Positions 2,022 through 62,404 of a DNA stretch of 64,000 nucleotides are shown here, one piece after another. Location of the stretch: positions 896,001 to 960,000 of the forward strand of contig CAVYTU010000014.1 in assembly GCA_963771465.1 (NCBI GenBank), written 5' to 3'. The DNA comes from an uncultured delta proteobacterium (GTDB taxonomy: Bacteria; Desulfobacterota; Binatia; UBA9968). The notes below the pieces were generated by a model. That model did no database searches. It saw only the letters and a program-made list of their open reading frames with translations, and was not told the DNA's origin. How positions within the stretch are numbered: position 1 is the stretch's first letter; the number at the start of each line of letters is the position of its first letter. The position numbers were made by a program, and so were the translations under genes.

Positions 2022-2082
2022 TGAGACACTGAAGTGTCTCAACACCGTCTCAAGGCCGTCTCAGCTGAGACAGCCTTGAGAC
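2022..2082. promoter_or_regulatory. Putative bEBP enhancer (UAS) array
   Basis: Six GTCTCA/TGAGAC half-sites forming two palindromes (2022-2041, 2047-2082) with 11-bp spacing, about 85-145 bp upstream of the sigma54 site. Confidence 0.7.
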
Positions 2083-3839
2083 TACTTGTCTTCGGGATTG
2101 ATATTGAGATCCGCCAATCGGCGGTAAAGCGTAGCGCGGCTGATGCCGAGACGCCGCGCTGCCAGCGCTCGGTTGCCGCGCGAACGGTTGAGTGCGTCGA
2201 GAAAGCGCGCCTTCTCATCGCTCAACGGATCACCGGCAATCGATCTGACAAAGGCCGCCGGCTTGACAATCTCGGGAGGCAAATCATCGGGCTGGATCAC
2301 CGCGTGGCCACAGTGAATCACGGCAAATTCAATGGCGCTTCTGAGCTCGCGCACATTTCCGGGCCAAGGATGGGCCATCAGGAGACGCACGGCCTCATGG
2401 CTCAATTCGGTGACCTGCTTGGCGCCGGCGGCGGAAAATTGGCCGAGAAACGAAGCGGCCAGCAGCGGAATGTCCTCGCGCCGCTCGCGCAGCGCCGGCA
2501 CCGCGATGCGCGCCACGCGAACGCGGTAAAACAGATCCGCGCGAAAATTGCCTTTGGTCACCTCGTCGCTCAAGCTACGGTGCGTCGCCGCCAGCAGTCG
2601 CACATCGATCTTGCGCGGGCGGGTTTCGCCCAGACGCACAATCTCGCGCTCCTGCAGGACGCGCAGCAGTTGATTCTGCACCGTCAACGGGATATCGCCG
2701 ATCTCATCCAACAGCAGAGTGCCGCCGTTTGCCGATTCGAAGAGCCCCTGTTGATCTTCGATGGCGCCGGTAAATGCGCCGCGTTTGTGACCGAAGAGCT
2801 GGCTGCTCAGGAGCGATTCCGTGAGCCCGGCGCAGTTCACCGCGACAAAGGGTTTGTCGCTGCGACGGCTGGCCGCATGGATGGCGTGGGCGACCAGCTC
2901 TTTTCCCGTGCCGGTTTCGCCTTCGATCAGCACCGTCGAATCGACGCGCGCGACGGCGCGAATCTGTTGATAGACCTGCTGCATCGCGGCGCTCTTGCCC
3001 AGAAGATCGTAAAATTGCGCCCGCTCATCGAGCAAGCGGCGCAAGTCATGAACGTCGGTCACGTCGTAAAGAAAAAAGATTTTACCGCGTGGGTCGCGCG
3101 GATCGTCTTTCACATCGACTTCGAGCCAAAGGCGCCGGCCGTCGGTTGCGTCCAAGTGCAGCGGGATGCGATTTCGCTCGGCCGTCGGCATCTCGATCAG
3201 CGCCCGCAGGTTGCGCGTATTTTCCGCATCTAGACCGAATAATTTTTGCCAGGGCAGCTTGGACGCGGCGCTCTCCGGCCGGCCAAAAAGTCGGCGCGCC
3301 ACCGCATTGAGAAATACCGCTTGGCCGTTTTCGTCGGTCATAACTGTGCCGATGCGCAATTCGTTGAGAATCGAACCGAGATCGTTGCGGCTTCGCTCCA
3401 CCTGGCGATACATTTCCAACAGTTGCTCCTCGGCCAGCTTGCGCGCGGTCACGTTCCTCTGGATTGATAAGAAATGAGTAATCTCGCCGCTGCCCGCGCG
3501 GATTGGCGTGATGTCCCATTCGACGTAGTATTCGGCGCCGTCCTTGCGATAGTTGACGGTCTCGCCGGAAAACGGCTCTCCTCGGCTGAGCGCGTCGCGC
3601 AAGCGCTGCAGCATGGCGCGATCGGACTTCGGCCCTTGGAGGATGCGCGGCGTTTTATGGAGGATCTCTTCCCGGCTGTAGCTGGTCATGTCGCATAGGG
3701 CAGGGTTGACGAACAGTATCTCCGGACCCGGCGGATCGAGCTGCGCCGAGGTAATCAGCACGGCCTCCTTCGCCTGATCGACAGCGACATCGAGCAGCCT
3801 CATGAGCTGCTCCGCTACGAGCAGCTGGGTTTCCGCCAT
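2082..3839 (-). CDS. PAS-domain sigma54-dependent transcriptional activator (bEBP) with Fis HTH
   Basis: LOV-like PAS (TPRILQG...NYRKDG), second PAS, GETGTGKE, GAFTGA, WPGNVREL, LGISRATLYR. Confidence 0.95.
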   Translation of the reverse strand: MAETQLLVAEQLMRLLDVAVDQAKEAVLITSAQLDPPGPEILFVNPALCDMTSYSREEILHKTPRILQGPKSDRAMLQRLRDALSRGEPFSGETVNYRKDGAEYYVEWDITPIRAGSGEITHFLSIQRNVTARKLAEEQLLEMYRQVERSRNDLGSILNELRIGTVMTDENGQAVFLNAVARRLFGRPESAASKLPWQKLFGLDAENTRNLRALIEMPTAERNRIPLHLDATDGRRLWLEVDVKDDPRDPRGKIFFLYDVTDVHDLRRLLDERAQFYDLLGKSAAMQQVYQQIRAVARVDSTVLIEGETGTGKELVAHAIHAASRRSDKPFVAVNCAGLTESLLSSQLFGHKRGAFTGAIEDQQGLFESANGGTLLLDEIGDIPLTVQNQLLRVLQEREIVRLGETRPRKIDVRLLAATHRSLSDEVTKGNFRADLFYRVRVARIAVPALRERREDIPLLAASFLGQFSAAGAKQVTELSHEAVRLLMAHPWPGNVRELRSAIEFAVIHCGHAVIQPDDLPPEIVKPAAFVRSIAGDPLSDEKARFLDALNRSRGNRALAARRLGISRATLYRRLADLNINPEDK

Positions 3840-31455: not shown

Positions 31456-31583
31456 TATCAATATGAGAAATGTCTCTGGAACCAGAGTCCCCAAAACTAA
31501 AGTTGTGAATTTTCTTACGGAAATTAAAAGAAAATCCGAGCGAAAAGGGACGAGAAAAGAGGACGCGAACCTTTTTTCACTTC

Positions 31584-41117: not shown

Positions 41118-41343
41118 GGTTCACCTCCAATCTTTTCTTTTGCTGGGCTTCCCTGGTATCCAATATTCCCTTCAGTTCGCACGTTTCCTTTTTGACATTG
41201 GCTAATCTCTCCTCGGGAAAAAATCCGGACTCGCGGAGCAATTCCAACCTGTTTATCCCTTATCATAATATTTCATCCTTTATATAGTTCTAATCCACTT
41301 TCGCTCGCGCCGGCGGTGCAAGCTTGGATTGCTGTTTTCTTGA

Positions 41344-41467: not shown

Positions 41468-41544
41468 CACGGCGGGCGGTGCGGGCTAACCGCTAACGTT
41501 TTTTAACTCCTGAACGGACCACTCTGAAAAAGCTTGATGATTAT

Positions 41545-41757
41545 CTAACGCGCTTTCTCCAACTCCGCCAAACGAGTCTTCGCCTGATTCGCGTACGGCG
41601 AGTCGGGATATTTTTCTACGATCTGCCGATAAAGTTTCGTAGCGTGCGGCTTGTTGAACTGCTTCTCTTCGAGCTGCGCCGTATCGTATAAATCCTTCGC
41701 TTTATCACCGCAGCCCGTGAGCAGTAGAAGCAGGCAGGCGGCAAGAAATCTTCGCAT
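41545..41757 (-). CDS. Small TPR-like lipoprotein
   Basis: Lipobox LLTGC; YRQIVEKYPDSPYA (BamD/CpoB-like repeat); GGAG RBS. Confidence 0.8.
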   Translation of the reverse strand: MRRFLAACLLLLLTGCGDKAKDLYDTAQLEEKQFNKPHATKLYRQIVEKYPDSPYANQAKTRLAELEKAR

Positions 41758-41853
41758 GAAAATTCTCCTTGTCGAATAGCCGTGAGACGTGAGGCCTGAG
41801 GCGATTCGGTTGATCGTGCAAAGCTCAGACTCACGCTTAACACCGATCCGGAC

Positions 41854-50893: not shown

Positions 50894-50987
50894 AGGGTCC
50901 TTCTGGCCTTTCTTGCTTTTTGTTTCGTTCATCCTCCACAGGCACTTTTGAATTCAACTCCAAGACTCCTTGCTCGCGATCGCCGCG
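50894..50987 (+). repeat. REP-anchored methionine-synthase-II-tail repeat, copy 1
   Basis: TTCTTGCTTTTTGTTTCGTTC...CACTTTTGAATTCAAC...CTCCTTGCTCGCGATCGCCGCG. Confidence 0.85.
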
Positions 50988-51952: not shown

Positions 51953-52004
51953 TTCCGTTTACGCCTCCTTGATACCATGCTATCGGACGCTCGTGACTCC
52001 CGAC

Positions 52005-53126
52005 TTAATGCTTTTCGGCTTTTGGAAAGCCGTAAGCCCCCGCAACCTTCGAGGTGTATTCGTCGAGCTTTGTATAGTGGTTCCAATCGACCAGGGAGAG
52101 TGTCTTTCCTTTGGTCTCTTGCGCTTGAACCGAATTGGGCAACAGTACGGACGCGCCATAAGGCCAGTGTTCATCCAGTAACTTTTGTCCTTCGGGCGAT
52201 GCCTGAAACTCCAGCCATAAAAGGGCGGCATAAGGATTTCTGGCCGCGGCCAGGACGCCGTCGGTAAGATGCAGCCTGCCCACAACCGGCTCCAAAAACT
52301 TATATCCGAGCACCTTGAGGCGGTCTTTTGCCTGCGCTCTCTTCACCGCTCCGAAGTTGGTCCCGATAAACATGGGAATCTCTCCGGCCTGAACGGAAGC
52401 AATCACGATGGAATGGCCTCTTGCCCAGGCAGGCTCCTGTGCTGCGATCTTCTTGGCAAAGTCGAGAGTCTTCTCAAGGCCCCATGCAGGGACCAGCGCC
52501 GCAACCCCTACGGGCCGAATATCCGAGGCGAACTTCTTCCCTTTGAACTCGGGCCGCAAAAGATCCTCCCACTTCACGGGGACCTTTTCGGGAGGGATCA
52601 ACTTGTTGTTGTAGGCCAGCACATGGAGATTGCTGCTAAGCGCCACGACGTGGCGGTAAATGGGATCGACCATCGGCGGAGGGATACTCAGCACCTTGTG
52701 CTGGGCCATGCCCAGAATGTCGAACTTCTTCTGGTGCGGCAGGTACTCATCGTATAACTCGGTCCAGAGGCGATTGGCATCCCAGTCCTTTACGATGCCG
52801 GCCTTGATCTCCAGGAGAAAGCGTTGCGCCGCTTCAACCGATCCTCCTTGCTCCTCCACATGGACGTCGAGAAAGGGGTACTTCGCCTTGAAGGCGCGAG
52901 CCATCGCGTCAAGCATCTTCCCGGACAGGAAGCTTATAGCTCGCATCCTGCCCTCTTTTTTGGCTGCGGCCACGATCTGGTCGTGGCTCGTCGCGAAAAC
53001 ATATCCCTTGGTTTCGGCCTCCTGTTTGGCTTTAAGCAACTCCGGACTCGCAGCGTCGCCATATCCAGCAAAAGCCGTGAGCCACAGCCCCAGGGCCAAA
53101 GCGAAATTTCTCGAAATCGCTTTCAT
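52005..53126 (-). CDS. Extracellular solute-binding protein (paralog family)
   Basis: Signal peptide, KAKQEAETKGY, AAKKEG, AYGFPKA. Confidence 0.9.
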   Translation of the reverse strand: MKAISRNFALALGLWLTAFAGYGDAASPELLKAKQEAETKGYVFATSHDQIVAAAKKEGRMRAISFLSGKMLDAMARAFKAKYPFLDVHVEEQGGSVEAAQRFLLEIKAGIVKDWDANRLWTELYDEYLPHQKKFDILGMAQHKVLSIPPPMVDPIYRHVVALSSNLHVLAYNNKLIPPEKVPVKWEDLLRPEFKGKKFASDIRPVGVAALVPAWGLEKTLDFAKKIAAQEPAWARGHSIVIASVQAGEIPMFIGTNFGAVKRAQAKDRLKVLGYKFLEPVVGRLHLTDGVLAAARNPYAALLWLEFQASPEGQKLLDEHWPYGASVLLPNSVQAQETKGKTLSLVDWNHYTKLDEYTSKVAGAYGFPKAEKH

Positions 53127-53243
53127 ACGCCCGTTACCTCCCAAAAAGTGTTCAAACCTGCGGTATGCAAAATCTTTAACACAATAATTCCGGCAAGGAC
53201 AAACGAGTTCAGTTCTAAGCAACGGCAAACCAAGGGTTCAGGC

Positions 53244-53280
53244 GTCAGGCTTGCCTAAGTCTACTAACTTTCTAGCAGTG
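53244..53280 (+). repeat. 37-bp direct repeat, copy A
   Basis: GTCAGGCTTGCCTAAGTCTACTAACTTTCTAGCAGTG. Confidence 0.8.
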
Positions 53281-53423
53281 CCGGTATTCTCGCTAGGCAA
53301 AAATCTTCTGGCGCGTGACGATGCCGCGCGCCGATGCGGCCGACTCCTTCGGTCACGCGACTACTAACACCAGGAGGGATGAATGAATAGGCGTTCTTGC
53401 AAAGAAATCACCGGGAAGCCGGT

Positions 53424-54329
53424 CTAGCGGTGAACCGCTTGTTCGAAGCAAACACCCGCTTCCGACGCAACGTCGAAAAGCTCCCGCGCGTGCATCCAGG
53501 CCTGTGTCTTTTCGAACATCTCTCGTGTGTAAGGCTGCGGCACGACCCGTTCGCCGATCCCGAATCGCCGAACATCGACTTGGTCGCGAAACCGCTCGGG
53601 AATCTCGTTGATGAAGTGGCGCTTGTAGCGCTCCGGTTCGACGTCGATATCCGCTTGCGCTCTGATGAGGGCGCGCATGTAGCGTTCGACGTCTAGCGAA
53701 TCCACATCGCGATGAAACATGAAGGCCATCATGAACGTCGTCGAGACGATTCTCCGAAAGCTGTGCTGTTCCAAAAGATAGAGTTGCGGTCCCCAGACGT
53801 TTACCGCCGGTGTCTTCCGCGCTAAAGCTGCATCGACGCGCGACCAGGAAGTGCCGACAAATTTGAGCGCGATGTCTGCGCGCGTCAGAAACACCTCCAT
53901 CGCCTGCAGCGCGGAGTAGTGACTGCCCGAGTGGTATCCGACCGCGATGTCCGTCCGAGCGAGGTCAGCGGGCTCGAAAACACTCGAATCACCCGGCACG
54001 ACGATGGCCGCCTCACAGACGCTATAAGCCTTGCCCCACATAATCCCTTCTTCCACTTTCGCCGACTGGTTTACCGTCCAATGACAGGCACAACTTACGT
54101 CGCCCGCGCCTTCTCCTTTACGTCCGTGCCCCTCCGCGTACCGTTCGAACGCACCAAAGCGGTTATCCTCGAGCGCGGCCGGCGAATCGCCGGTCGCGAG
54201 CCGGGGCGTGTTCTTGCGGCTTCCTTCCACATTGAGTTCGTAGTCGAGACCTTCCGCAGCAAAATAACCTTTTTCTTCGGCAACCCAATCGTTGAGCCTG
54301 CCGTGCGGCTGAATGATGAATTTCGCCAT
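53424..54329 (-). CDS. ABC substrate-binding-like protein (NMT1-like), no signal peptide
   Basis: WVAEEKGYFAAEGL, SCACHW, VGYHSGSHYS. Confidence 0.75.
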   Translation of the reverse strand: MAKFIIQPHGRLNDWVAEEKGYFAAEGLDYELNVEGSRKNTPRLATGDSPAALEDNRFGAFERYAEGHGRKGEGAGDVSCACHWTVNQSAKVEEGIMWGKAYSVCEAAIVVPGDSSVFEPADLARTDIAVGYHSGSHYSALQAMEVFLTRADIALKFVGTSWSRVDAALARKTPAVNVWGPQLYLLEQHSFRRIVSTTFMMAFMFHRDVDSLDVERYMRALIRAQADIDVEPERYKRHFINEIPERFRDQVDVRRFGIGERVVPQPYTREMFEKTQAWMHARELFDVASEAGVCFEQAVHR

Positions 54330-54420
54330 ATCTTTCTCCCCGTCAGTTTATGACAGCCCGCATTTTGAATTTTCTAGTCGGCGCTTTGGATCACCTTGTA
54401 AAGCTGTTTGCGGGCTGTCT

Positions 54421-54457
54421 GTCAGACTGGCCTAAGTTTACTAACTTCCTGGCAGTG
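54421..54457 (+). repeat. 37-bp direct repeat, copy B
   Basis: GTCAGACTGGCCTAAGTTTACTAACTTCCTGGCAGTG. Confidence 0.85.
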
Positions 54458-54779
54458 TTTGTATAGCGCTGCGCAAAATCCCCTCGCGCGCGCCGGTGCC
54501 GCCGCCGGCAATTTCAGCGAAGTTGGAAAATTTCGTTCCAGTGCTTCTCGTACTTGGGATAATTTTTTGTATCATCCGCTGAAAGCTTATAGGTTTTCGC
54601 CGGGAGAATTTTCTCGACCTTCTTTTGTGATGCCTGTTCGATAAAGTCCAGGGCCCGATCTTGGCGGACTGGTCCGTATGCTATCTCAGCCCCATGGTCA
54701 CAGCAAAAGGCCTTGTAATCGCGGCGTTGTTCGGCCTATTTTTTGGTTGTCGGTCTAAAACTTCTCTGGAGGTGTGAAT

Positions 54780-55616
54780 ATGCCACGCTATCTCGTTTTG
54801 GCCAATCAAACCGCCGCGAGCCCGGAGCTGACCAGCGCAGTTCGGGAGATCGTGGCAAACGACGCAGATACGGAATTTGTCTTGCTGGTTCCCGCCACAC
54901 CGGTAGAAGATCTCCTCGATTGGCAGGACGGCGATAGTGAAACGATCGCGCAGCGCACCGCTCAAGCGGCAAAAGGTCATCTAGCGGGAGTGGGTGCGAA
55001 AGTCGCGCGCACGGAAGTGGGTGACGCTTCGCCTGTAAAAGCAATCGAGAACGAGTTGGAACAGCACCAAGAAAAATATGACGGCATCATCATCTCCACT
55101 CTACCGCTGCAAAGGTCACGCTGGGTGGCTCTCGACCAGCCCCGGCGCATCGAGCGCCGCTTCAAAGTGCCGGTCCGACACGTGGTAGGCCATTCGGTTA
55201 CTATGACCAGGGAGGATCTCATAAACGGTCTGAATGAAGATCTCAACCTTGAGCTCGAGGCGCTCCTGAGGAGCGTGTATCACGCCGCCGCCGGTCGCGG
55301 CATGCTCGGCCACGAGCTTCGCGAGTTACTGAAAAAGGAGCTCCCGGGCGAGCTTGACCACGCTACGTTTCTCGCCGATAAGATCGTGGCGCTCGGCGGC
55401 GAAGTGCGTATCCGGCCGGCCATGCCCGCAGAATTTGGCGCTGCCCGGGAGCTTTTGCAGCAGAATATTGCCGCCGAACGGAAGATCATAAACAATTACA
55501 CGAGACGGATCGATCAGGCGGCGGAGTTTGGCGACAAAGGTCTGGCGATACGCTTGGAGAATATGCTGGCATCGGAAACTGATCACCTCGAGCAACTCGA
55601 ACGTCTGGGACGCTAG
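54780..55616 (+). CDS. USP-like domain fused to a ferritin-like (bacterioferritin-type) domain
   Basis: N-terminal LVLANQT...GDASP...IIISTLP...SRW. C-terminal four-helix bundle with E, ExxH (ELDH), E, ExxH (ETDH) and IVALGG. Confidence 0.85.
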   Translation: MPRYLVLANQTAASPELTSAVREIVANDADTEFVLLVPATPVEDLLDWQDGDSETIAQRTAQAAKGHLAGVGAKVARTEVGDASPVKAIENELEQHQEKYDGIIISTLPLQRSRWVALDQPRRIERRFKVPVRHVVGHSVTMTREDLINGLNEDLNLELEALLRSVYHAAAGRGMLGHELRELLKKELPGELDHATFLADKIVALGGEVRIRPAMPAEFGAARELLQQNIAAERKIINNYTRRIDQAAEFGDKGLAIRLENMLASETDHLEQLERLGR

Positions 55617-55697
55617 TGCGCCGGACCGCTCACGTCGAACTTTGAGGACTGAACGCAGCGGAGGGCGCGGTCCGCGTGGCAGGCGTGCGGGCTGCTT

Positions 55698-55734
55698 GTC
55701 AGACGGGCCTAAGGTTACTAACTTCCTGGGAGTG
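55698..55734 (+). repeat. 37-bp direct repeat, copy C
   Basis: GTCAGACGGGCCTAAGGTTACTAACTTCCTGGGAGTG; also shares upstream TGCGGGCTG with copy B. Confidence 0.85.
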
Positions 55735-55767
55735 TGTTCCGCGGAGAAAACAAGCCCGTTTTTCGGC

Positions 55768-56796
55768 TTAGTCTCGCAGCACCGCATTCATCCGCGCGAT
55801 GACCTCCGGCGGCTGGGTAACCACCTCGCGCGCCAGGGCTTGAAGCTTCTCGCCGCTCACAGGGTCCGGTTCCCAGCGACGCTTTTCCGCCTCGGCCAAA
55901 AGCTCGGGATCTTTCATCACCTTCAAAAAACTGTCGCGCAGAATTTTGACCCGATCAGCGGGGATCGTCGGACCGCCTACGATCGGCCGGCCGAACGGAC
56001 CGGGCGAGAGCAGAACGGTCGCGAGCCGTTTACCGGCCTCGGGTGTTTTATGTTTTTCCATCGCTTCCCAGATCGTTGGCACGTCCGCTGCCCGCGGATC
56101 GCGCTTTGACCCGCCGATGACAAGTATTCGGACGAATCCGTTTTTCGCCCAGGTGCGGCCCGGTTCCCTGCCGAAAAATGCGCTGGTCGTGCCGGCGCGG
56201 CATTGGACTTCGCCTTTCTCGATGGCGAGGTCGATGTCGTTCGCTCCGGGGTAACCTGCCACCAGGTTGAACTTCAGCGCGAGAACTTCTTCCAGGAGCC
56301 GCGGAAAATAGTGGCCGGGCGTGCCGGTGCCGGTGGTGCCGCACTTGGGCGGCGTCGATGCCTGGCGAATATCATCGAAAGTTTTGAAAGGCGTGTCGGA
56401 ACGCATGGAAAGCATTTCGCTGGTTTCCTCGGGCGTGCCGATCCAGGCGAACTTTGCCCAGTCGAACTTGGCTTCTTTTTGACCGCCGAGTTGGTTGAAA
56501 AACAGCGCGGGGGCGATCAAGCCCAGGGTGAGCCCATCGCCTTTTTCGACTCCATAGATGTAATTAGCCGCGACCATGGTGGCGGCGCCGGGCATATTTT
56601 GCACGATGAAATTCGGATTGCCTGGAATGTACTTGCCCCAAAACCGCGCGATCGCCCGCGCCCAAAGATCGTTGGTGCCGCCGGCGGAGTAGCCGATCAA
56701 CAGTCTGACCGTTTTACCCTTGTAAAAATCAGCTTGAGCGCCGGCGCTCGTGCTGCCGATGGACAAAAGCAATAGAGCGAAAAGAAATGTTCTCAT
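55768..56796 (-). CDS. Bug/TctC tripartite tricarboxylate transporter substrate-binding protein
   Basis: FYKGKTV, GGTND, IPGNP..IVQNMPGA, GYPG, DPELLAEA. Confidence 0.9.
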   Translation of the reverse strand: MRTFLFALLLLSIGSTSAGAQADFYKGKTVRLLIGYSAGGTNDLWARAIARFWGKYIPGNPNFIVQNMPGAATMVAANYIYGVEKGDGLTLGLIAPALFFNQLGGQKEAKFDWAKFAWIGTPEETSEMLSMRSDTPFKTFDDIRQASTPPKCGTTGTGTPGHYFPRLLEEVLALKFNLVAGYPGANDIDLAIEKGEVQCRAGTTSAFFGREPGRTWAKNGFVRILVIGGSKRDPRAADVPTIWEAMEKHKTPEAGKRLATVLLSPGPFGRPIVGGPTIPADRVKILRDSFLKVMKDPELLAEAEKRRWEPDPVSGEKLQALAREVVTQPPEVIARMNAVLRD

Positions 56797-56910
56797 TGTC
56801 TGAGTTCCTTTCGTTACGTGGATTGCGGCCATTGACCCAAACCCAGGTCCCCTGCCCAAGGGCACGTATAATTCATGCCGGCAGGAAGTCAACACCGCCA
56901 ACGAAAAATT

Positions 56911-57150
56911 GAGAGTCAGACTTTTACTTCTAGACTTTCTTGCTTTTTGTTTCGTTCATCCCGCACAGACACTTTTGAATTCAACTCCACAACTTCTTGC
57001 TGCGATCGCCGCGCCGTCGCGCAGCTTGGCCCAGGCGATTTACGGATGAACGCGGCAGCGGTCGGTGCCGGCGATGACGTTTTCTCGGTCGACGATTTCA
57101 GCAAACGTAATGATACGATCGGCTACCAGTTCCAGGATGCTCGACGAGTT
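56911..57150 (+). repeat. REP-anchored methionine-synthase-II-tail repeat, copy 2 (longest)
   Basis: GTCAGACTTTTACTTCTAGAC arm; minus strand decodes, with indels, to VEHPELVADRIITFAEIVDRENVIAGTD...RVHP.IAWAKL..DGAAIA. Confidence 0.85.
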
Positions 57151-57289
57151 TCGCGGTGAGTTTGCCTAGATCACGGTAAGTCAACGACCGGCAGAGCATC
57201 GTCGTTGACTTGGCCACCCCTTCAAAGCTATTGGAGGCGGTGACGCTTTTCGCAATATCTGTTCTTGAAACTTCAAGGAGGTAGCAGAA

Positions 57290-58594
57290 ATGAACTCATG
57301 GCGAGTTTTACCCGCGGTGTATTTACTGTGTCTTGCATCTAGCGTTGCCGTCGCCTTTGGGCAGAGCAACCCAACCTATATTCAATTTTCCCCCGCTGAA
57401 GTGAAGGGAGCGCTCTACAAACCCGACTCCGGGCCGGCGCCGCATGTTGGGATACTCGTGACGCATCGTACCTCGAATGTCATGGGAAGCTTGACCTGCA
57501 CCGAGCTAGCAAAGAGAGGATTCGCGGTTCTCTGCTTGAACCCAAGATCCGATAACAACGAAGCTCTGGTCAGATGGGAGAGCATCGCTCTAGACGTGCG
57601 GTCGGGAGTGAATTTCCTGAGAAAACAACCGGGCATCACGAAAGTTTTGCTTCTGGGAGGGAGCGGTGGAGGGCCGACAATGAGCTTCTATCAGGCGGTG
57701 GCGGAGCGCGGTCCTTCGTACTGCCAGGGTCCCAACAAACTTGTTCAATGTAGCGGCGAGCTTGCCAATCTCCCGCGGGCCGACGGGATCATCTTCAGAG
57801 ATGCGCATCCAGGAAATCCGGTGAACGGCATCAGGAGTCTGAACCCCGCAATCGTGAACGAGGGGCAACCTGGTCAAAAAAATCCTGAGTTGGATCCGTT
57901 CAACCCCGAGAACGGCTACAACCCCAAGGGACCATCGAAATATTCCGAGGCATTCAAGAAAAAATACTTCAAGGCGCAAGCAGACCGGATGAACAAACTG
58001 ATCGACGACGCTTTGCGCAAGGTGGCGCTGATGAAAGAAGGCAAATACCATTATCCCGATGACGATGTCTTTGTTGTCGTCGGAGGGGGCGGAGCGCGAC
58101 TCATGGAGCTCGACTTGAGTATTCATCACGGCACGATACAGCCGCAGAAATTGCTGAAGAACGACGGCGGCATCGTAACCGAGGTCGTGCACAGCGTTCG
58201 GCGCGCCAATCCAGCGCTCGCGAAAGAAAGCGCGACTTTCGAGAATGGGGCGCGGTTATTGACGGTACGATCTTTTCTCAGCGCCAATGCGACAAGAGCC
58301 GCGGATTCCATGGACGGAATCGATGATTGCTCCACCAACAACTCGACGCCATGCGCCCTGCGCAATATTTCTGTTCCGGTGCTCATTGCCGCCATGGGGG
58401 CGCACTATTTTATACGGGACAACGAGATCCATTACGAAGTAGCCGCCAGCTCGGACAAAGATTTCATCGTGATAGAAGGCGCAACGCACGGAATCACGCC
58501 GTGCGTCCGGTGCGAACAATCGCCGGGGCAATATTCGAACAGCGTGAAGAACTTTTTTGATTACGTGGCGAAATGGATTAACGCCCGGTTTTGA
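57290..58594 (+). CDS. Secreted alpha/beta hydrolase-fold protein
   Basis: Signal peptide, GGSGGG elbow, ISVPVL, IEGATH; AAGGAGG RBS. Confidence 0.85.
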   Translation: MNSWRVLPAVYLLCLASSVAVAFGQSNPTYIQFSPAEVKGALYKPDSGPAPHVGILVTHRTSNVMGSLTCTELAKRGFAVLCLNPRSDNNEALVRWESIALDVRSGVNFLRKQPGITKVLLLGGSGGGPTMSFYQAVAERGPSYCQGPNKLVQCSGELANLPRADGIIFRDAHPGNPVNGIRSLNPAIVNEGQPGQKNPELDPFNPENGYNPKGPSKYSEAFKKKYFKAQADRMNKLIDDALRKVALMKEGKYHYPDDDVFVVVGGGGARLMELDLSIHHGTIQPQKLLKNDGGIVTEVVHSVRRANPALAKESATFENGARLLTVRSFLSANATRAADSMDGIDDCSTNNSTPCALRNISVPVLIAAMGAHYFIRDNEIHYEVAASSDKDFIVIEGATHGITPCVRCEQSPGQYSNSVKNFFDYVAKWINARF

Positions 58595-59586: not shown

Positions 59587-59762
59587 GGGTCATACTTTTT
59601 GCTTCTAGACTTTTCTCGCTTTTTTGTTTCGTTCATACCTCACAGACACTTTTCAATTCAACGCCGCAACTCCTTGCTCGCGATCGCCGCGCCGTCGCGC
59701 AAAGCGCGCAGCTTGACCTATGCGATTTGCGGATGGACGCGGTCGCTTAGGCCGCAGTCGGT
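59587..59762 (+). repeat. REP-anchored methionine-synthase-II-tail repeat, copy 3
   Basis: AGGGTCATACTTTTTGCTTCTAGAC arm; minus strand TDCGLSDRVHPQIA*VKLRALRDGAAIASKEL. Confidence 0.85.
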
Positions 59763-62330: not shown

Positions 62331-62404
62331 GGGTCGGACTTTTACTTCTAGACTTCTTGCTTTTTGTTTCGTTCGGCCCGCACAAGCACTTTTCAATTTA
62401 ACGC
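62331..62404 (+). repeat. REP-anchored repeat, copy 4 (shortest)
   Basis: GGGTCGGACTTTTACTTCTAGACTTCTTGCTTTTTGTTTCGTTC...CACTTTTCAATTTAACGC. Confidence 0.85.

Follow-up and report, generated by a model that had tools for sequence, protein, structure and literature searches.

Three direct repeats in a Binatia genome as probable orphan ends of a TIRYT-type element

Three repeats among single genes

The window, a 64,000-nt stretch of contig C14 of an uncultured Binatia genome, carries three ungapped direct copies of a 37-nt repeat on its + strand, at 53244-53280 (A), 54421-54457 (B) and 55698-55734 (C). The copies and their spacings of 1177 nt (A-B) and 1277 nt (B-C) agree with the initial annotation. 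Scanned with up to 3 mismatches, the annotated pattern gave 3 matches in the window, whereas 0 of 100 dinucleotide shuffles contained any. A repeat search of the window lengthened the family to 50 nt, and the features are listed below with the copies labelled according to the reading favoured here.

53232..53281, + strand: copy A, probable solo 3'-side terminal inverted repeat (TIR) with ~13 nt of element interior (nhmmer, 3'-end model)
53424..54329, - strand: 301-aa gene between A and B, weakly NMT1/THI5-like, periplasmic-binding-protein type (Pfam)
54409..54458, + strand: copy B, probable degenerate solo TIR (nhmmer, 3'-end model)
54780..55616, + strand: 278-aa gene between B and C, C-terminal ferritin-like domain (PF00210)
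55686..55735, + strand: copy C, probable solo TIR, the most degenerate (nhmmer, fold)

All three copies are intergenic. Copy A lies in a tandem pair, between an SBP-like gene (52005-53126, -) and the 301-aa gene; B separates the 301-aa gene from the divergent ferritin-domain gene; and C sits within the convergent pair of the ferritin gene and a TctC-like gene (55768-56901, -). The gene labels given earlier hold in part. The NMT1-like label stands for a weak likeness, since PF09084 scores 19.1 bits, just under its cut-off of 20.5. In the proposed USP-ferritin protein the ferritin domain is solid (PF00210, E 1.5e-16), but Pfam showed no USP domain even at E up to 1, and the N-terminal half has no domain assigned.

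B and C are 90% identical, A and B 68%. B is the sister of C, and the 12 nt that the two have in common outside the TIR head indicate a duplication that was not a clean TIR-defined transposition. Copy A is nearest to the family consensus: both keep a GTAG head on the - strand, and the stem of A has one G.T mispair. B and C read GTAA instead and have lost both head and stem, the consensus stem being broken in B. The unique flanks (53281-53422, 54348-54408 and 54458-54704) have no second copy in the genome or the fetched loci.

The imperfect dyad noted earlier folds in B (-6.3 kcal/mol, z -2.0), but copy A does not fold (z +0.9) and copy C has no stable fold (z +1.4). The consensus hairpin is a weak 6-bp AT-rich stem (-3.8 kcal/mol, z -1.67). 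These folds bear on whether the repeats serve the host by binding a transcription factor, by forming a hairpin that terminates transcription or stabilises mRNA, or as a small RNA. Their intergenic position would suit such a role, and REP-type repeats are described as co-opted in this way (PMC3733652, PMC3479197). However, the folds are weak and inconsistent, with A and C no better than shuffles; no T-run follows the repeats, and their placement relative to genes varies from tandem to divergent to convergent. At the gathering score the window had no Rfam match, and 14 related loci had none at E up to 1. We consider a host function highly improbable.

The repeat family and its parent element

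Scanning the 6.9-Mb genome with an nhmmer motif model gave 6 copies at E < 0.001 (10 matches in all at E up to 10), those besides A, B and C lying at C19:36797, C16:75151 and C19:31573. The same ~29-nt sequence is present in 10 of 30 same-genus sister genomes, with 1-6 copies in each. The pattern occurs at 22 places in relatives, and an extended GTCAGACTTG head was read by eye from the copy listings at 20 of them, within 10/30 genomes; the places without it are L013 and L016. By the same reading, the start or end of a RAYT-like Y1/HUH transposase gene directly adjoins 15 of the 21 distinct copies read in relatives. In six of these the gene start comes within about 15-25 nt downstream, in nine the copy leads into the gene's 3' end in reverse complement, and the other six copies are solo. 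Copies also cluster on the same strand: on the + strand of C19 those at 31573 and 36797 are joined by a weak one at 41157, and one relative carries three in 19 kb (G026:C33). Many TIR elements are described as organised in dimers or clusters (Di Nocera 2013, PMC3733652).

The repeat sequence of the element is GTGTCAGACTTGCCTAAGTCTACTAACTT, seen in L007 and L017. The transposase gene, which is in the relatives and not in the window, encodes 290 aa in L017 (622-1494, -) and matches PF01797 (Y1_Tnp, E 3.6e-12) and NF047646 (REP-associated tyrosine transposase, 84.9 bits against a cut-off of 80). HFH and Y-x3-NP (Y-I-H-L-N-P) motifs are visible in its translation. In G007 (L045) an intact element of ~930 bp encloses its 290-aa gene between a + copy that lies at about 1475 and a - copy occupying 2377-2405. 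G018 (L014) shows the same inverted layout around a gene shortened to 247 aa, the + copy lying at about 1489 and the - copy near 2395. Inspection by eye of the two complete elements showed no obvious target-site duplication, and the transposase had no PDB sequence match at E up to 0.01. The last 100 residues gave only sub-threshold helix-turn-helix (HTH) matches (MarR, HTH_20 and others, E 0.03-0.14).

The genome studied here has no intact cognate transposase gene. It retains only four fragments of it, at 59-79% identity (one 41%), together with two intact paralogues at 37% identity whose flanks carry a related GGGTCAG head.

Copies A, B and C are members of one repeat family with the TIRs that flank the transposase gene. 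A TIR model built from 23 copies, A, B and C among them, matched A at C14:949241-949273 (nhmmer E 9.4e-9), B (E 3.5e-7) and C (E 2.2e-5). With a model of the 3' end built without the three, A aligned to positions 3-45 (E 7.9e-8) and B to positions 5-42 (E 0.0022), both running through ~13 nt of element interior; C was absent among the matches listed. The initial annotation had placed the motif in a family of DNA-recombination sites, and that reading is kept, the motif being the end of a mobile element. An early idea that remnants of the transposase gene start follow A and B was dropped, because tblastn of the transposase against 52000-58000 had a best E of 0.93; A and B match the 3'-end model instead.

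Cassette sites, active ends or relics

The initial annotation took the repeats for the sites of an unrecognised site-specific cassette array, integron-like or pdif-like, in which a recombinase encoded elsewhere would move one-gene cassettes delimited by the repeats. Three direct, evenly spaced repeats do part unrelated single genes. The exclusion of attC was borne out by direct reading, since there is no RYYYAAC/GTTRRRY pair and the nearest strings, TACTAAC and GTTAGTA, both fail; nor is the site dif, as had been said. It is also correct that the enzyme is not encoded nearby: the window contains no recombinase gene of the Tyr, Ser or IS110 type. None of the 14 matches to Phage_integrase (PF00589) in the genome is on contig C14, the nearest resolvase matches lie ~194 kb beyond the window end, and the single IS110 match in the genome is sub-threshold, on C10.

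Copies of the enclosed genes occur in other species in different contexts, which would favour cassettes. The 301-aa gene has a 94% identical block (53423-54347) in G019, between unrelated flanks and with no TIR, and the ferritin-domain gene has 90% identical blocks (54705-55676) in G026, G030 and G021, again between unrelated flanks. However, the homology stops 11 to 248 nt short of the repeats, and across 11 loci of homologues in relatives nhmmer found just one site, flanking the TctC-like gene on a different side. That each interval holds one gene is true here but not special, because single-gene mosaicism relative to relatives runs across the whole window, including parts where the repeats are absent. 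In species-level relatives, where an empty site was looked for, the neighbouring genes are nowhere syntenic, and these genomes have just 1-3-gene blocks in common with congeners, a pattern that deserves its own study. A metagenome search with the SBP-like protein gave two close loci among 80 kept. In one (L070, 91% aa identity) homology stops at 53204 and a DDE transposase gene follows, and the other (L071) ends within the gene; neither informs on site A.

We sampled variants of the locus in 4 metagenome runs, as assembled contigs only, and describe those among the contigs listed. One feature was added by this comparison.

53235..54695, no strand: 1461-nt segment (A, the 301-aa gene, B and 238 nt) missing from one metagenome contig (run X5)

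In the X5 contig (1375 nt) the SBP-like gene runs straight into the DNA upstream of the ferritin gene; the joint has 158 nt on its short side, and the SBP side differs at 67 of 1214 letters. The check for cassette polymorphism yielded one presence/absence variant, the loss of a block with A, one gene and B, but its ends are out of register with the repeats: recombination of A with B would skip 1177 nt, and this sole variant skips 1461 nt and takes both copies. Among the contigs listed, B and C are each bridged in three runs, and their context is unchanged in contigs of three runs from three studies. Copy A is bridged by none of them, which says nothing either way. Taken together, we regard a cassette array as very unlikely. 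The motif is instead the TIR of a RAYT-like Y1 element of a described type, and the annotation's own alternative, a scattered mobile-element end, is essentially what was found.

The break in X5 falls at 53234/53235, the head of A, exactly where a head-like GGGTTCAG precedes the copy. This would fit solo ends that are still active in trans through a paralogous TIRYT transposase (37% identical, with the related GGGTCAG-headed end), one-ended or end-to-end events inserting or deleting gene-sized DNA beside them. Two intact paralogues whose flanks carry a related head are present, and same-strand clusters of ends with intervening genes recur on C19 and in G026. On the other side, the GTAG head and stem are missing from B and C, the right end of the 1461-nt block has no recognisable end sequence, the variant is a single one on one assembled contig, and cross-recognition at 37% identity is presumed. 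We consider continued activity in trans unlikely. The broader idea that orphan TIRYT ends, worked on by paralogous Y1 transposases, seed such one-ended insertions and deletions is decidedly improbable; if true, the block at the head of A would be a case in point, and such events would add to the single-gene mosaicism of these soil genomes.

We conclude that A, B and C are very probably orphan, decaying single ends of a TIRYT/TIRtron-type element and not cassette sites. Such an element is ~930 bp long, with a RAYT-like Y1 (HUH) transposase as its sole gene between ~29-bp TIRs. Its enzyme would nick and rejoin DNA at the ends, as HUH/Y1 enzymes do, and in this way may have spread solo ends and truncated elements. 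All window copies appear to be remains of the element's 3'-side end together with about 13 nt of its interior, and one of B and C may have arisen from the other by a local 50-nt copying event. In the accounts of PMC3733652 and PMC6006769 no TIRYT is reported as biochemically tested, and cleavage at the ends is therefore an inference. Today the window copies probably lie inert, as relics that do not work as recombination sites.

Several observations count against relics of this element. The copy number is very low and 3 of 6 copies lie within 2.5 kb, for which decay alone is insufficient. There is no transposase remnant at A, B or C (tblastn against 52000-58000, best E 0.93), the head agrees with GGGGWSAS at 7 of 8 positions, and the HTH is sub-threshold. 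The X5 contig shows that DNA with A and B was gained or lost as a block starting at the head of A, which would allow the end some part in rearrangement.

Reading the repeats as TIRs would remove a candidate new cassette system and assign them to a described element class. By-products are a clean consensus end with one intact transposase gene (G007), and a documented lineage in which the enzyme has decayed and the ends alone remain.

Comparison with known systems

We compared the repeats with four known systems. Integron attC arrays likewise place single unrelated genes between direct repeats. However, the present repeats have no R''/R' core pair and no integrase on the contig, they conserve sequence where attC conserves structure, and the enclosed genes do not travel with the sites.

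The transposase falls in the same Y1 HUH superfamily (PF01797) as those of IS200/IS605 elements of the IS608 type, and small hairpins occur in the ends of both. IS200/IS605 elements carry subterminal hairpins in the same orientation on one strand and are not known to have inverted terminal repeats, whereas the ends of the present element are inverted repeats, with no tnpB in its ~930 bp.

REP/RAYT systems (REPtrons of Gammaproteobacteria; Nunvar et al. 2010, PMC2817692) are closer. The NF047646 model is passed, two inverted copies flank the gene, a GTAG head (GTAA in B and C) stands by a short palindrome and the copies are extragenic. REPs usually number >100 copies per genome (PMC2817692), in contrast to 6 here and 1-6 per relative; the palindrome is the weak AT-rich stem described above, and no alternating arrays of the BIME type turned up.

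The closest match is with the TIRtrons, or TIRYTs, described by Di Nocera, De Gregorio & Rocco (2013, BMC Genomics 14:522, PMC3733652), most of which have been put in TnpA-Y1 subclass 2.1 (Quentin et al. 2018, PMC6006769). Three differences stand out in addition to the uncultured soil lineage of the host. The present repeat has a REP-like GTAG foot on the complementary strand. Its head agrees with the majority TIR motif GGGGWSAS (PMC3733652, PMC6006769) at 7 of 8 positions, as GGTGTCAG or TGGGTCAG in relatives and GGCGTCAG in copy A, and at 5 of 8 in B and C. A C-terminal HTH (Bac_DnaA_C, HTH_23 or HTH_28) is expected in most TIRYTs (PMC3733652, PMC6006769), whereas that of the present transposase is sub-threshold only. 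As in the TIRYTs described there, a RAYT-like Y1/HUH gene lies between terminal inverted repeats with no classical REP hairpins, the head is GGGGWSAS-like, the TIR includes a tract that is in part complementary to itself, and solo copies form small clustered families of low copy number.

A low-copy repeat family in the genome and its relatives

The initial annotation had described three ungapped direct repeats, and direct reading confirmed them, with every letter of its consensus fitting and with spacings of 1177 nt (A to B) and 1277 nt (B to C).

53244-53280, + strand: copy A, ungapped
54421-54457, + strand: copy B, ungapped
55698-55734, + strand: copy C, ungapped

The core pattern, at up to three mismatches, matches no place in the 64-kb window other than A, B and C, and none of 100 dinucleotide-preserving shuffles of the window contained a match. 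A repeat search widened the family to 50 nt, over which B (54409-54458) and C (55686-55735) are 90% identical, a stretch that takes in 12 nt left of the conserved core, and A and B are 68% alike. All three copies are intergenic. Among the gene labels first given to the intervals, ferritin stood (+ strand, E 1.5e-16), NMT1 fell just below threshold (19.1 versus 20.5 bits for the 301-aa protein) and no USP domain was detected. The imperfect dyad was borne out only for B when folding was compared with shuffles; A and C fold no better than shuffles.

In a scan of the genome and relatives for more sites, as had been suggested, the 15 specified core bases, at up to one mismatch, were found four times in the 6.9-Mb host genome (reversed-pattern control, zero). 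A profile of the terminal inverted repeat (TIR; see below), built from 23 copies, found six at E < 0.001: A, B, C, C19:36797, C16:75151 and C19:31573. That three of the six should fall within 2.5 kb of a 6.9-Mb genome is highly non-random: by our own estimate, the chance of such clustering is of order 1e-6. Among 60 relatives, the one-mismatch pattern matched 12 genomes and its reversed control matched 18; since the control also gave matches, all pattern places were read individually. The conserved extended head GTCAGACTTG is present in 20 of the 22 places in relatives, in 10 of 30 same-genus genomes. The remaining two places (L013, from G004, and L016, from G035) look fortuitous, and the 30 genomes searched beyond the genus yielded no convincing copy. 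The unpublished genomes G035 and G005 were counted in the tallies of pattern places, homology blocks and transposase matches; no specific claim depends on them.

A transposase gene between inverted copies

We read the 400 nt downstream of 21 distinct copies from relatives, including a second copy in locus L014. In six cases an ORF start (MPRHPR...LLYHVMARGNDG...) comes within about 15-25 nt of the copy; in nine the copy leads into the 3' end of that MPRHPR... gene, in reverse complement; the other six copies are solo. The intact cognate gene lies at:

L017:622-1494, - strand: intact cognate transposase gene, 290 aa

The 290-aa protein matches Pfam Y1_Tnp ("Transposase IS200 like", E 3.6e-12) and NCBIfam NF047646 ("REP-associated tyrosine transposase", 84.9 bits, cut-off 80). 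Its translation contains the HUH motif (HFH) and the tyrosine motif Y-x3-NP, which Quentin et al. (PMC6006769) give as the class 2 signature; for a C-terminal HTH there are only faint signs (E 0.03-0.14). In the intact element of G007 (L045), the motif has one copy at about 1475 (+ strand) and another at 2377-2405 (- strand), so TIRs of ~29 bp surround a one-gene unit of ~930 bp. The layout in G018 is equal, with the gene copy cut short at 247 aa, and the inverted ends of a sister gene in G019 (68% identical) have the outer TGTCAGACTTGC in common and then diverge. Y1 transposase genes are common in the genus, with matches at E up to 1e-8 in 26 of 31 genomes and a maximum of 27 matches (G015); only three (near) full-length genes in the 31 genomes reach at least 68% identity with the cognate transposase.

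Gene mosaicism, the cassette proposal and a population variant

The repeats had been proposed as recombination sites of a cassette array holding one gene per interval. The genes near the repeats all have close homologues (78-94% DNA identity) among the 30 congeners. Each homologue is on a different contig, and homology stops at the gene's own edges:

53423-54347: homology block, G019 at 94%
54705-55676: homology block, G026, G030 and G021 at 90%
55745-56906: homology block, G025 at 92% and G018 at 91%

None of these blocks contains A, B or C. Of 11 homologous loci searched with the TIR profile, only one, from G018, has a copy, and there it is on the other side of the TctC-like gene, joined to a truncated transposase start. 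Scattered blocks of 1-3 genes on different contigs extend across the whole 64-kb window in five relatives (G018, G019, G025, G026 and G028). The window is thus an unusually fine-grained mosaic relative to congeners, and the TIR repeats do not explain it; because the mosaic holds window-wide, the single gene in each interval reflects general mosaicism rather than the repeats, and the cassette array is not upheld. Nor were tyrosine, serine or IS110 recombinases found in the window: none of 14 tyrosine recombinase matches is on contig C14, the only resolvase matches lie ~194 kb past the window's end, and the one IS110 match, on C10, is sub-threshold.

Blocks common to the window and congeners have 74-96% DNA identity and sharp edges at gene boundaries. 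A second family of repeats, about 75-235 nt long, also occurs in the window (50900-50974, 56927-57055, 59604-59742 and about 62345-62402), immediately upstream of three unrelated - strand genes (FMN oxidoreductase, TctC-like and PRAI-like). On the - strand it reads, in order, as a gene fragment's 3' end, an intergenic stretch, GGAGG, and a short frame that begins MNETKSKK. By blastn the genome has 15 pieces, nearly all of them on C14:946900-967671 and C19:1635-13984, and metagenome depth at this family is several-fold above its flanks. A stretch of ~237 nt at 41533-41769, with 86-91% identical copies in G019 (three), G018:C46 and G026:C68, looks like another dispersed repeat.

The locus is partly present in 20 public runs from 16 studies, all soil-type metagenomes, and we compared it with assembled contigs of four runs, each from a different study. 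In X1, X2 and X3, contigs bridge the window arrangement across B (records 5, 11 and 20) and across C (records 6, 12 and 22). Among the contigs listed, one from X5 (record 26, 1375 nt) fuses 53234 directly to 54696 and so lacks 1461 nt, made up of A, B, the 301-aa gene between them and a further 238 nt. On its SBP side 67 of 1214 letters differ, so the source of the contig is a related strain or species. On the left, the break coincides exactly with the point at which a head-like GGGTTCAG stands before A; on the right no end can be recognised, and the break is 9 nt away from the edge of the ferritin homology block. The 1461-nt block is a real presence/absence variant, resting on one assembled contig. 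The missing segment is not the 1177-nt product that A x B recombination would give. The X5 variant leaves a low probability that the TIR ends take part in rearrangements. In a further metagenome contig (L070, reverse complement 2054-3298), a 414-aa DDE-type transposase gene occupies the place of copy A; the SBP-like gene of that strain is 92% identical (DNA) and homology to the window stops at 53204.

Decay of the element and comparison with known families

Against a model of the element's 3' side built without the window copies, A aligns to positions 3-45 (E 7.9e-8) and B to positions 5-42 (E 0.0022), a span corresponding to the TIR and about 13 nt inside the element. No transposase remnant follows the window copies (tblastn best E 0.93). 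A is nearest to the consensus and retains GTAG; B and C have GTAA instead and mismatched stems. B and C have derived changes and 12 nt outside the TIR head in common, which argues for local copying of one from the other, a duplication that, by its sequence, appears not to have proceeded via TIR-defined transposition.

The host genome has no intact cognate transposase, only four fragments (C16:75000, C19:36825, C19:35660 and C6:128040), and two intact paralogues (37% identity), which are flanked by a related head of the GGGTCAG type. A second cluster, on C19, has ends at 31573, 36797 and, weakly, 41157, all on the + strand, with two 3' transposase gene fragments and ordinary genes in between. 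A, B and C are real and non-random and appear to be orphan ends of a TIRYT/TIRtron-type element, the enzyme of which is decayed in this genome.

Locus L004 (C19:35310-38326 of the host) holds two ~270-nt direct copies of a decayed transposase 3' end (305-575 and 1518-1790) flanking one 228-aa gene that has no Pfam match; the TIR is retained at the second copy only, just before which lies a weak remnant of the transposase 5' part. In L007 (G025:C362, about 1440-1580) two complete TIR copies form a tandem with a spacing of 48 nt; ahead of them come short tandem repeats whose unit, GGTCACAG / GTGTCAG, is head-like. The GGTCACAG string also occurs at the end of the 1461-nt variable block (54686-54693).

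Nunvar et al. 2010 (PMC2817692) describe RAYT genes as always bracketed by a pair of REPs in inverted orientation, headed GT(A/G)G, and REPs as usually exceeding 100 copies. Like a REP, the present element has GTAG on the complementary strand at the foot of a small hairpin, but the hairpin is weak (-3.8 kcal/mol, z -1.67) and the copy number tiny; we therefore filed it as a TIRtron rather than a REP family. Di Nocera et al. 2013 (PMC3733652) gave the names TIRYTs/TIRtrons to RAYT-like genes in which TIRs replace the REP hairpins, and reported a GGGGWSAS motif common to many TIRs, self-complementary tracts inside some, and moderately abundant families with many TIRs in dimers or clusters; Quentin et al. 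2018 (PMC6006769) assigned 20 of 26 TIRYTs to subclass 2.1, with a C-terminal HTH. The present element likewise has inverted ends, an internal 6-bp self-complementary tract (AGACTT / AAGTCT) and few, clustered copies, and its head, GGTGTCAG or TGGGTCAG, agrees with GGGGWSAS at 7 of 8 positions. Judged by these features, it seems to fit the published description of TIRtrons, an already known class to which it would add a member.
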